Below, piece by piece: positions 2,369 through 3,812 of a stretch of DNA of 64,000 nucleotides. A program made the position numbers and the translations under genes. Source of the stretch: Rhodobiaceae bacterium (GTDB lineage: Bacteria; Pseudomonadota; Alphaproteobacteria; Rhizobiales; G965224185); assembly GCA_965224185.1 (NCBI GenBank), contig OZ245042.1:5146761-5210760 (forward strand), read 5' to 3'. Position 1 is the stretch's first letter. Each line of letters opens with the position of its first letter. Below the pieces are notes generated by a model that saw only the letters and a program-made list of their open reading frames with translations, made no database searches and was not told the origin of the DNA.

Positions 2369-2725
2369 ATGGAAACCTTGTTCGAAAAATATGGCGGCTT
2401 CAGTACCGTCAGTCGCATTGTCATGGCGTTTTACGACAAGGTGCTCGATTCCGATCAGGTGGGCGACTATTTCGAAGACATCGATATGCGGCGCCTGATC
2501 GACCACCAGACCAAATTCGTTGCCTCGGTGATGGGCGGGCCTGCGAGTTTCACGGACGACATGCTGGAAAGGGTGCATGCGCGCTTTGAGATCAGCCGTG
2601 AAGATTTTGAAGAGGTCGCCCGGCTCCTGCATGAAACATTGCGCGAATTCGGCGTCGAGGAGGATGACGTCGTAACCATCATGCTTGCGATCGAAGACAG
2701 AAGTTCGGTCATCATAACGGCTTGA
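2369..2725 (+). CDS. glbN: Group I truncated haemoglobin (trHbN)
   Basis: METLFEKYGG...FYDKVL (Tyr-B10)...HQTKF (Gln-E11)...GGPASFTDDMLERVH (proximal His) align with the trHbN pattern, as in M. tuberculosis HbN. An SD-like gagggg lies 5 nt before the ATG at 2369. The track start at 2363 is a GTG. Confidence 0.85.
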   Translation: METLFEKYGGFSTVSRIVMAFYDKVLDSDQVGDYFEDIDMRRLIDHQTKFVASVMGGPASFTDDMLERVHARFEISREDFEEVARLLHETLREFGVEEDDVVTIMLAIEDRSSVIITA

Positions 2726-2732
2726 GGATCAG

Positions 2733-3812
2733 ATGTTGGCCATGAATATGGAGGTCTTCAATCGCTTGTTGTTGGAATCGATCGGGGTCGGTCTGGCCGT
2801 CATCGATGCCGACAGCCATGAGGTCCTGTTCTTCAACCCGCTATTTGCCACCTGGTTCCCGCTTCCCGAAAGCGGCTCGCGGCATATTTCCGACGTATTG
2901 GGGGTGATCGATTCCGACAAGCTGCGCCGGGACGACGGCCGGTTTTCGGGAGAGGTGCAAATCAAAGTCAAGCGCCGGACGCTGACGATTGCCGTCAATA
3001 TTTCAAAAACAGCCGCCGATAACGACGAAGATCGCGCGCTGCTTGTTGAATGCAATAACGTGTCCAAAGTCAAAGAGTTGGAGTATATGATTGAATCATA
3101 TTCCAAACTCGTCGAGAAGAACGAACGCCAGTTGCGCCGGGAAAAGGAGCGGGCGGAAAAGCTGCTGCTCAACGTCATGCCGAAGGCGGTCTACGAGGAA
3201 TTGAAGGATTACGGGGTCACCACGCCGACACGCTATGACGAGGTGTCGGTACTGATGCTCGACTTCGTCGGTTTCACCGAGATGACGATTTCGTCGGATC
3301 CGACGGTGCTCGTCTCCGAACTCAATGACATTTTCACCGCATTCGACCGCATCGTGGAGCAGTTCGGATGCGAGCGCATCAAGACGATCGGCGATGCCTA
3401 TATGGCGGTCTCCGGCCTGCCGGACCCGACCCCCGATCACGCATCCAACATCGCCCGCGCGGCGATCCTGTTCCGCCGCTATATCCGCGAGCGAAACCGC
3501 TCATCCCAGGTGTCGTGGAAGTGTCGCATCGGCATCGCCACCGGGCCGGTCATCGGCTCCATGATCGGTGTGCAGAAATACGTTTATGACATATTCGGTC
3601 CCGGCGTGAATCTGGCCGCGCGCATGGAGGCGATTGCCGAACCCATGGAGATCTGCGTGTGCGAAACGACGGCCGATATGATCGGCCATGATTTCAGCCT
3701 CGATTCGGCGCCCGATGCCGACCTGAAAGGCTTTGGCAGGCAGAAGATCTTCAAGCTGTCGCGCCATACCGAGCGCCCCGTGCGCCGGGAACTGCCGAAC
3801 TACCTGCAATAG
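2733..3812 (+). CDS. PAS-like sensor / coiled-coil / class III adenylate (guanylate) cyclase
   Basis: N-terminal PAS-like segment (LLESIGVGLAVIDADSHEVLFFNP...), a coiled-coil linker, then the cyclase catalytic core VSVLMLDFVGFT...KTIGDAYMAVSGLP...GIATGPV..G..G.....YDIFGPGVNLAARME. It starts 7 nt after the trHbN stop. Confidence 0.85.
   Translation: MLAMNMEVFNRLLLESIGVGLAVIDADSHEVLFFNPLFATWFPLPESGSRHISDVLGVIDSDKLRRDDGRFSGEVQIKVKRRTLTIAVNISKTAADNDEDRALLVECNNVSKVKELEYMIESYSKLVEKNERQLRREKERAEKLLLNVMPKAVYEELKDYGVTTPTRYDEVSVLMLDFVGFTEMTISSDPTVLVSELNDIFTAFDRIVEQFGCERIKTIGDAYMAVSGLPDPTPDHASNIARAAILFRRYIRERNRSSQVSWKCRIGIATGPVIGSMIGVQKYVYDIFGPGVNLAARMEAIAEPMEICVCETTADMIGHDFSLDSAPDADLKGFGRQKIFKLSRHTERPVRRELPNYLQ

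Follow-up and report, generated by a model that had tools for sequence, protein, structure and literature searches.

Why should the gene for a small haemoglobin stand directly before the gene for an adenylate cyclase? The question is raised by a 64,000-nt stretch of DNA from a Rhodobiaceae bacterium (GenBank assembly GCA_965224185.1, contig OZ245042.1, forward-strand positions 5,146,761 to 5,210,760). This whole stretch is referred to here as the window, and positions are given in its own numbering unless another locus is named. An open reading frame (ORF) for a group I truncated haemoglobin of 118 amino acids (aa) occupies 2369-2725 on the plus strand (ATG at 2369, TGA at 2723-2725), as judged from Pfam and from matches in the PDB. 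It is followed on the same strand by an ORF of 359 aa (2733-3812; ATG at 2733, TAG at 3810-3812) for a protein with a PAS domain, a signalling helix, and a class III adenylate cyclase domain, as judged from Pfam, a homologue alignment, and a structural model. An earlier note, written from the sequence alone, had suggested that the two products form a module by which O2 or nitric oxide (NO) is converted into a cyclic AMP (cAMP) signal. In this study the suggestion was followed up computationally. The pair proved to be a real, conserved, and specific feature, and it is best read as a nucleotide cyclase controlled in trans by a haem-based sensor.

Conservation of the pair and its specificity for one PAS domain

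Relatives of the globin were sought in a species-level scan (one genome per species) with an alignment of the globin subfamily as the query, and were found in at least 559 genomes. Linkage was counted in the loci of the best 80 of these genomes, in which the globins are 52-64% identical to that of the window. All of the 80 loci that are classified below the phylum level belong to Alphaproteobacteria and come from several orders; carriers include Roseibium, Leisingera, Ruegeria, Stappia, Hyphomicrobiales, Rhodospirillales, Geminicoccaceae, and Kiloniellales. A downstream gene was counted when both a PAS-like N-terminal region and the catalytic domain were present. Such a PAS-cyclase gene lies directly downstream and on the same strand in 77 of the 80 loci, or in 77 of the 79 that are testable, one locus stopping at a contig edge. 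Conservation of the adjacency had been named in the earlier note as a test of a functional link, and the adjacency is kept in these genomes, as it is in the metagenome loci described below, amid neighbours that differ.

The globin gene comes first in every pair, and the two genes are closely packed. Of 85 pairs, 40 have a globin stop codon that shares 1 nt with the consensus cyclase start; the gaps have a median of 6 nt and reach at most 80 nt. The window itself has the 7-nt gap that had been described between the globin stop and the cyclase ATG at 2733 (2726-2732). The reading frames differ, and the globin and the output enzyme are separate polypeptides encoded by separate ORFs, as had been stated. 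Most cyclase homologues start at the equivalent of Met4 (consensus N-terminus MNME), and the cyclase start is uncertain by 9 nt; it could lie at 2742, giving a 16-nt gap. A Shine-Dalgarno-like GAGGA (2724-2728, plus strand) overlaps the globin stop codon and ends 4 nt before the ATG at 2733. The spacing points to co-transcription of the two genes, and the position of GAGGA over the stop codon, together with the overlapping stop and start codons of relatives, suggests that their translation may be coupled.

No third gene was found to be conserved family-wide; synteny beyond the pair occurs at the level of lineages only (PPK2-like and TetR-like genes, and others). Three relatives at 77-82% identity retain the pair amid entirely different neighbours. 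Because the flanking genes differ even in close relatives, the pair acts as a self-contained two-gene cassette.

The cyclase side of the pair was examined in a metagenome scan with the cyclase alignment as the query. The scan returned nine loci with the N-terminal domain of the family and many related cyclases with other N-termini. The latter share only the helix and the catalytic domain (36-48% catalytic-domain identity), and 49 of them have at least 2 kb of upstream sequence. A globin gene lies directly upstream of all nine cyclases with the family PAS domain, at identities down to 40%, and of none of the 49 related cyclases (Fisher p = 9e-11). Upstream globins were sought both by tblastn and by a globin profile hidden Markov model at E <= 1, with the same outcome. 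The globin goes with the PAS domain and not with cyclases generally.

This PAS domain is rare. An exhaustive phmmer search with residues 1-110 of the cyclase against 1.84e9 representative proteins returned 40 clusters, mostly cyclases or fragments of cyclases, and the domain is N-terminal in every clear family member; an earlier word-indexed search with a profile of the N-terminal domain had returned five fragments only. Two of the proteins carry other outputs. In one (P0254) the same PAS domain is fused to a GAF-HisKA-HATPase_c histidine kinase (hhalign probability 99.7%, E = 3e-26), and in another (P0281) to a SpoIIE/PP2C phosphatase (hhalign probability 98.7%, E = 1.7e-16). The kinase (565 aa) shares 42% identity with the window cyclase over the N-terminal domain, and the start of its gene is overlapped by 4 nt by a gene for a 122-aa globin (locus L161, 3636-5698). 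The start of the PAS-SpoIIE/PP2C gene is likewise overlapped, by 8 nt, by a gene for a 120-aa globin (locus L162, 96-3133). Both globins match Bac_globin and retain Tyr-B10, the E-helix motif DHQTKF, and His-F8. Such swapping of outputs is the pattern expected of one sensor whose cognate receiver domain is carried by interchangeable effectors, and we regard it as the strongest argument for a role in signalling. The idea of a sensor and its effector, first put forward for the cyclase, gains support from a globin gene that also precedes a PAS-GAF-histidine kinase and a PAS-PP2C.

The two proteins and their surroundings

The 118-aa protein matches the Pfam family Bac_globin (PF01152) with E = 6.9e-17. 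Its strongest PDB matches are group I truncated haemoglobins, namely Synechocystis GlbN (1s69, 1.2e-13) and Mycobacterium tuberculosis HbN (1idr, 3.4e-12), and it is matched weakly by group II truncated haemoglobins (HbO and relatives). The alignment with GlbN is gap-free to residue 70 and places Tyr22 (2432-2434) at B10, Leu43 at E7, His46 (2504-2506) at E10, Gln47 at E11, and His70 (2576-2578) at F8, which bears out the ligand set of Tyr-B10, Gln-E11, and proximal His that had been read from the sequence. In sets of 26 and of 86 sequences, conservation is complete or no lower than 95% at the group I hallmarks H70 (F8), Y22 (B10), F35 (CD1), Q47 (E11), and the two Gly-Gly hinges G9-G10 and G56-G57. 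Residues conserved to at least 95% in 86 pairs are G9, G10, F11, V18, F21, Y22, S28, F35, M40, D45, H46, Q47, T48, K49, F50, G56, G57, P58, H70, E82, and D100. By its sequence the protein is a bona fide group I truncated haemoglobin of what we call the DHQTKF subfamily, and its conserved pocket is predicted to bind haem b.

The label trHbN that had been given to this globin is right as to group I, but the protein is nearer to GlbN than to HbN in having His-E10 and Val-E15 and in lacking a pre-A extension. His46, on which the earlier note is silent, is invariant, aligns with His46 of GlbN, and is predicted to be able to coordinate the iron, a GlbN-type trait. In the hexacoordinate cyanobacterial GlbN, His-E10 ligates the iron. 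In an alignment of the window globin with M. tuberculosis HbN, the HbN residue at E10 is Lys; residue E15 of the window globin is Val51 and not the Phe of HbN, and no N-terminal pre-A extension is present. Relative to GlbN, the window globin has a 4-residue deletion after the F helix, and no His is found at the position aligned with the C-terminal His117, which forms the covalent haem link in GlbN. Coordination of haem iron by the residue at E10 has been documented in truncated haemoglobins (PMC11904497). Residues D45, T48, and K49, which flank His46 and Gln47, are predicted from helical periodicity to face the solvent, and their invariance would suit a docking surface.

Pfam and an AlphaFold2 model agree with the initial description of the second protein as PAS-like domain, coiled coil, and class III cyclase. 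An N-terminal PAS fold (residues 6-109; 2748-3059, plus strand) was recognized with AlphaFold2 and Foldseek. A long signalling helix with a cyclase-transducer element follows (residues 110-165; 3060-3227, plus strand), as indicated by the model, a weak HNOBA match, and alignment with mammalian AC8 and AC9, and then a class III (IIIa-like) catalytic domain (residues 166-342; 3228-3758, plus strand), as indicated by Pfam, alignment with AC8, and Foldseek. The full-length model has a mean predicted local distance difference test score (pLDDT) of 81.7 and consists of the PAS fold, one long helix at 110-148, and the catalytic domain. The helix and transducer (110-165) are the most conserved part of the N-terminal half, and the pre-catalytic helix of AC8 and AC9 aligns to the signalling helix. 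The HNOBA-type coiled-coil match in Pfam (residues 103-157) is weak and sub-threshold, and the PAS domain itself is not detectably HNOBA by sequence.

Modelled alone, the PAS domain reaches a pLDDT of 86.8, and Foldseek matches it to generic PAS/LOV domains at a template modelling (TM) score of ~0.6, with DosP among the structural matches. Few of its residues are invariant (F9, L13, A22, N35, F42, R81, and N109), none of them His, Cys, or Met. There is no conserved His. Cys107 (3051-3053), in the last beta-strand of the domain, is present in 87% of the members, the other 13% having Ala, Phe, Leu, or Met in its place; the cysteine could be a redox-sensitive or a contact residue. Readings of the domain as a flavin-binding LOV or as a haem-binding PAS domain were considered and rejected, the structural matches being generic and both the LOV cysteine motif and a conserved His being absent.

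In Pfam the catalytic domain (residues 166-342) matches Guanylate_cyc (PF00211) at E = 3.2e-45. Six catalytic residues align to their C1/C2 counterparts in AC8: Asp177 and Asp221 for binding metal, Lys217 and Asp286 for specifying adenine, and Asn293 and Arg297 for the transition state. Among 44 homologues they vary little or not at all, and they are spaced exactly as are D256, K296, D300, D365, N372, and R376 of Rv1625c. All six are found in one chain, from which an active homodimer is predicted. The protein classifies as a bona fide class III, IIIa-like adenylate cyclase. Its predicted product, from Lys217 and Asp286, is cAMP, in line with the first reading of this gene as a cAMP-forming cyclase; a reading as guanylate cyclase was rejected on the same two residues. 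Foldseek matches the whole model best to the full-length alpha and beta subunits of soluble guanylate cyclase (sGC), over ~370-385 alignment columns, and next to Rv1625c and M. intracellulare Cya, whose catalytic domains are 35-37% identical to that of the window cyclase. Its catalytic domain superposes on that of Rv1625c at ~2.5-3 Å. In the model, the cyclase is built like sGC (PAS, coiled coil, cyclase) minus the H-NOX domain.

In the window the globin and cyclase ORFs form a stand-alone two-gene unit on the plus strand, with a minus-strand gene on either side: guaB at 519-2120 and an aminotransferase gene at 3882-5432. A Shine-Dalgarno-like GAGGGG (2358-2363, plus strand) was recognized in the sequence 5 nt before the globin ATG, and because of its position the ATG at 2369 is preferred over an in-frame GTG at 2363. 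About 90 nt upstream of the globin gene lies the perfect 10-bp palindrome ATTACGTAAT (2273-2282, not assigned to a strand), a possible operator or promoter element. It is not kept in relatives; when the upstream regions of close relatives were aligned, no shared operator was found. Two relatives have a palindrome of their own, GGTG(G/T)TATAACACC, ~35-45 nt upstream of the globin gene (L164, 4590-4603; L165, 4587-4600), and the two palindromes are unrelated to each other. A promoter and terminator scan gave no sigma-70-like promoter in 2000-4000, and Rfam and tRNA scans of the window gave no matches.

Two observations on individual loci concern the neighbours of the pair. In L164 and L165, kynureninase-like and tryptophan-dioxygenase/aminotransferase genes are located just upstream of the globin gene; they are found neither in the window nor in L163, and the presence of genes of this haem- and O2-dependent pathway of tryptophan catabolism is probably coincidental. 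The most divergent pair (L090, 1518-4692) has a globin 39-40% identical and a G+C content of 70%. A gene for a Crp/Fnr-type regulator with a cyclic-nucleotide-binding domain (4030-4692, minus strand) lies convergent just downstream of its cyclase gene, and the product could be the cAMP receptor of that organism. A linked cAMP receptor of the Crp/Fnr kind was found in this locus only, and not in the window or the other loci.

A probable sensor in trans and its alternatives

On balance, the globin and the PAS-cyclase probably make up a two-protein haem-based system in which the sensor acts in trans on a cAMP-forming effector. The globin would be the input, its haem iron shifting its ligation or redox state with O2, NO, CO, or the redox poise of the cell. 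As the PAS domain has no conserved His and its Cys107 is present in only 87% of the members, any haem input must come from the globin. The PAS domain of the homodimeric cyclase, perhaps together with the adjoining signalling helix, would receive the globin, and the helix and transducer would relay the change to the catalytic dimer, so that cAMP synthesis is raised or lowered. The H-NOX domain that is missing from this sGC-like enzyme would in effect be replaced by a separately encoded globin. One conceivable switch is His-E10, which, as in GlbN, may be bound to the iron when no exogenous ligand is present and be displaced on ligand binding. Its displacement, or a change between the ferric and ferrous states, would move the E helix that bears D45, T48, and K49. 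It may also be speculated that oxidation of the oxy form by NO to a bis-histidyl ferric form would allow NO to be reported in the presence of O2. The contact, the domain contacted, the ligand, the sign of the regulation, and the His-E10 switch are all inferred. The wider proposal, to which we give about an even chance, is that the DHQTKF subfamily (L-[IVM]-D-H-Q-T-K-F) consists of dedicated in-trans sensors that plug into cyclase, kinase, or PP2C outputs via a 'globin-receiver' PAS domain.

Several observations weigh against such a system. Contact between globin and cyclase is a hypothesis, and no natural fusion of the globin to the PAS domain was found among the layouts of the 40 clusters. 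Two globins are orphans that have no adjoining cyclase gene although DHQTKF is intact (L015, 4995-5363, and L063, 4857-5357, from Ruegeria sp. EL01 and a Rhodobiaceae metagenome-assembled genome); their partner may be elsewhere in the genome. The histidine kinase and PP2C architectures are each represented by a single contig, and in the PP2C example an ISL3 element has probably split the gene by insertion, since two ISL3 transposase ORFs and then an 83-aa SpoIIE fragment lie directly downstream. Truncated haemoglobins with Tyr-B10 and Gln-E11, such as M. tuberculosis HbN, usually bind O2 very tightly. Tight binding, if it is also expected here from these two residues, would be unfavourable for a reversible O2 sensor and would fit an enzymatic role equally well. 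In a mirror-tree comparison, globin distances followed those of the N-terminal region of the cyclase (r = 0.82) more closely than those of the catalytic domain (r = 0.79); the partial correlations were 0.42 (permutation p ~0.001) and 0.25, respectively. This signal is modest and confounded by shared phylogeny, and lends the proposal only mild support.

The alternative that survives best, although we think it unlikely, is that the globin has an enzymatic function, for instance as NO dioxygenase, peroxidase, or nitrite reductase, and is merely co-expressed with a cyclase whose PAS domain senses an unrelated signal of its own. The globin would then protect the cell under the same conditions, or remove NO or O2 locally, without contacting the cyclase. 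It has the distal pocket of the NO-dioxygenating HbN of M. tuberculosis (Tyr-B10, Leu-E7, and Gln-E11), and its contact with the cyclase is putative. Truncated haemoglobins are, moreover, described in the literature mostly as enzymes (PMC11904497; PMC4319818). However, there is no evident reason why a detoxifying enzyme should follow a single rare PAS domain across three outputs and yet be missing beside 49 related cyclases. The globin gene always stands first, and often overlaps the next. In the neighbourhood, neither a reductase partner nor another stress gene is conserved, and both the pre-A extension and the Phe-E15 tunnel gate of HbN are absent.

It is less probable still that the PAS domain is itself a sensor that binds a cofactor, haem or another ligand, with the globin donating or chaperoning its haem or keeping it reduced as a redox partner. 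PAS domains that bind haem are familiar, DosP is among the structural matches, and Cys107 is widely conserved. The replacement of Cys107 in 13% of the members, the lack of a conserved His, and the absence of any invariant PAS residue that could ligate haem iron nevertheless speak against this reading, and the complete, invariant ligand pocket of the globin would be superfluous in a simple haem carrier. Gene linkage alone gives no direction to the flow of information, and it is conceivable, if very improbable, that regulation runs the other way, with the PAS protein controlling the globin, or that the globin acts as a scaffold or stoichiometric inhibitor, with no part played in signalling by its haem chemistry. 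Three different output enzymes attached to the PAS domain look instead like interchangeable effectors below a common sensor, and so invariant a haem pocket would hardly be expected if haem chemistry did not matter. A chance adjacency, or one left over from the synteny of a lineage, in either case functionally meaningless, is effectively refuted: only the two orphan globins speak for it, against the pair in 77 of 79 genome loci and nine of nine metagenome loci from several alphaproteobacterial orders, flanking genes that are not conserved, and the Fisher test against related cyclases.

The proposal of a sensor in trans bears on a wider problem. What most bacterial truncated haemoglobins do in the cell is not settled; discussion usually treats them as enzymes that detoxify NO or act like peroxidases. 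A conserved, specific coupling to signalling enzymes would assign a sensor function to the DHQTKF subfamily, one that is testable with two small soluble proteins. If true, it would be the first signalling role for T-family globins, and bacteria would have, besides H-NOX and NosP, a third type of haem gas sensor that stands alone. In alphaproteobacteria, among them many marine genera (Roseibium, Leisingera, Ruegeria, Stappia), cAMP would also be coupled to O2, NO, or redox state. The pair would be a bacterial counterpart of sGC in which a globin, possibly through hexacoordination by His-E10, replaces H-NOX, and with it a simple bacterial model for the PAS, coiled-coil, and cyclase relay of sGC. 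A modular gas-responsive cyclase could be of use in synthetic biology.

Comparison with known systems

The earlier note knew of no characterized pair of a truncated haemoglobin and a cyclase. Full-text literature searches, with subscription-only papers outside their scope, likewise gave no prior description of a truncated-haemoglobin/PAS-cyclase pair. A truncated haemoglobin of Roseobacter denitrificans was considered as a precedent and set aside; it belongs to group II, stands in a context of nitrogen metabolism, and is unrelated (PMC4319818). The nearest characterized globins, GlbN of Synechocystis/Synechococcus and HbN, are both of group I and ~28-31% identical to the window globin. GlbN has identical residue numbering to F8 and has His-E10 and Gln-E11 in common with the window globin; HbN has Leu-E7, Tyr-B10, and Gln-E11 in common with it. 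No link to a signalling enzyme is known for either GlbN or HbN, and none was found in the literature searches.

On the cyclase side, the catalytic domain, the transducer helix, and the spacing of the six catalytic residues are those of the class IIIa enzymes, such as Rv1625c and Cya and the mammalian membrane adenylate cyclases. Unlike these, the window cyclase is predicted to be soluble, has an N-terminal PAS domain where they have a membrane anchor, and comes with an attached globin gene. Globins do act as sensors elsewhere: in the globin-coupled sensors HemAT, EcDosC, and AfGcHK and in the globin-adenylate cyclase HemAC-Lm of Leishmania, a 3-on-3 globin of the sensor family is fused N-terminally to the output domain in a single polypeptide. 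The likeness would lie in the use of a globin as the gas-sensing input, for an adenylate cyclase in the case of HemAC-Lm. The pair in the window differs in that its globin is a truncated one (T-family, group I) encoded by a separate ORF, and not a fused 3-on-3 globin.

The closest parallels in organization are the H-NOX partner operons, in which an H-NOX gene lies beside that of a histidine kinase or of a diguanylate cyclase/phosphodiesterase. H-NOX (HNOB) and HNOBA are reportedly associated in such bacterial operons. Here as there, a small stand-alone haem protein is encoded beside varied signalling enzymes, and the PAS domain of the effector travels with the sensor gene. The likeness is functional and organizational only, since the candidate sensor here is a 2-on-2 globin and the output is mostly a class III adenylate cyclase. 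With sGC the enzyme shares a PAS domain, a coiled coil, and a class III cyclase in one chain, and it would also share regulation by a gas bound to haem if the proposal holds. It differs from sGC in having no H-NOX domain, so that the PAS domain is N-terminal, and in being a predicted homodimer in contrast to the sGC heterodimer. Its Lys217 and Asp286 point to ATP, in place of the Glu and Cys that give sGC its guanine specificity, and its haem domain would act in trans and has another fold. The comparison with H-NOX operons drawn at the outset is nonetheless an apt one, for the cyclase appears to have the build of sGC from which the H-NOX domain is missing.

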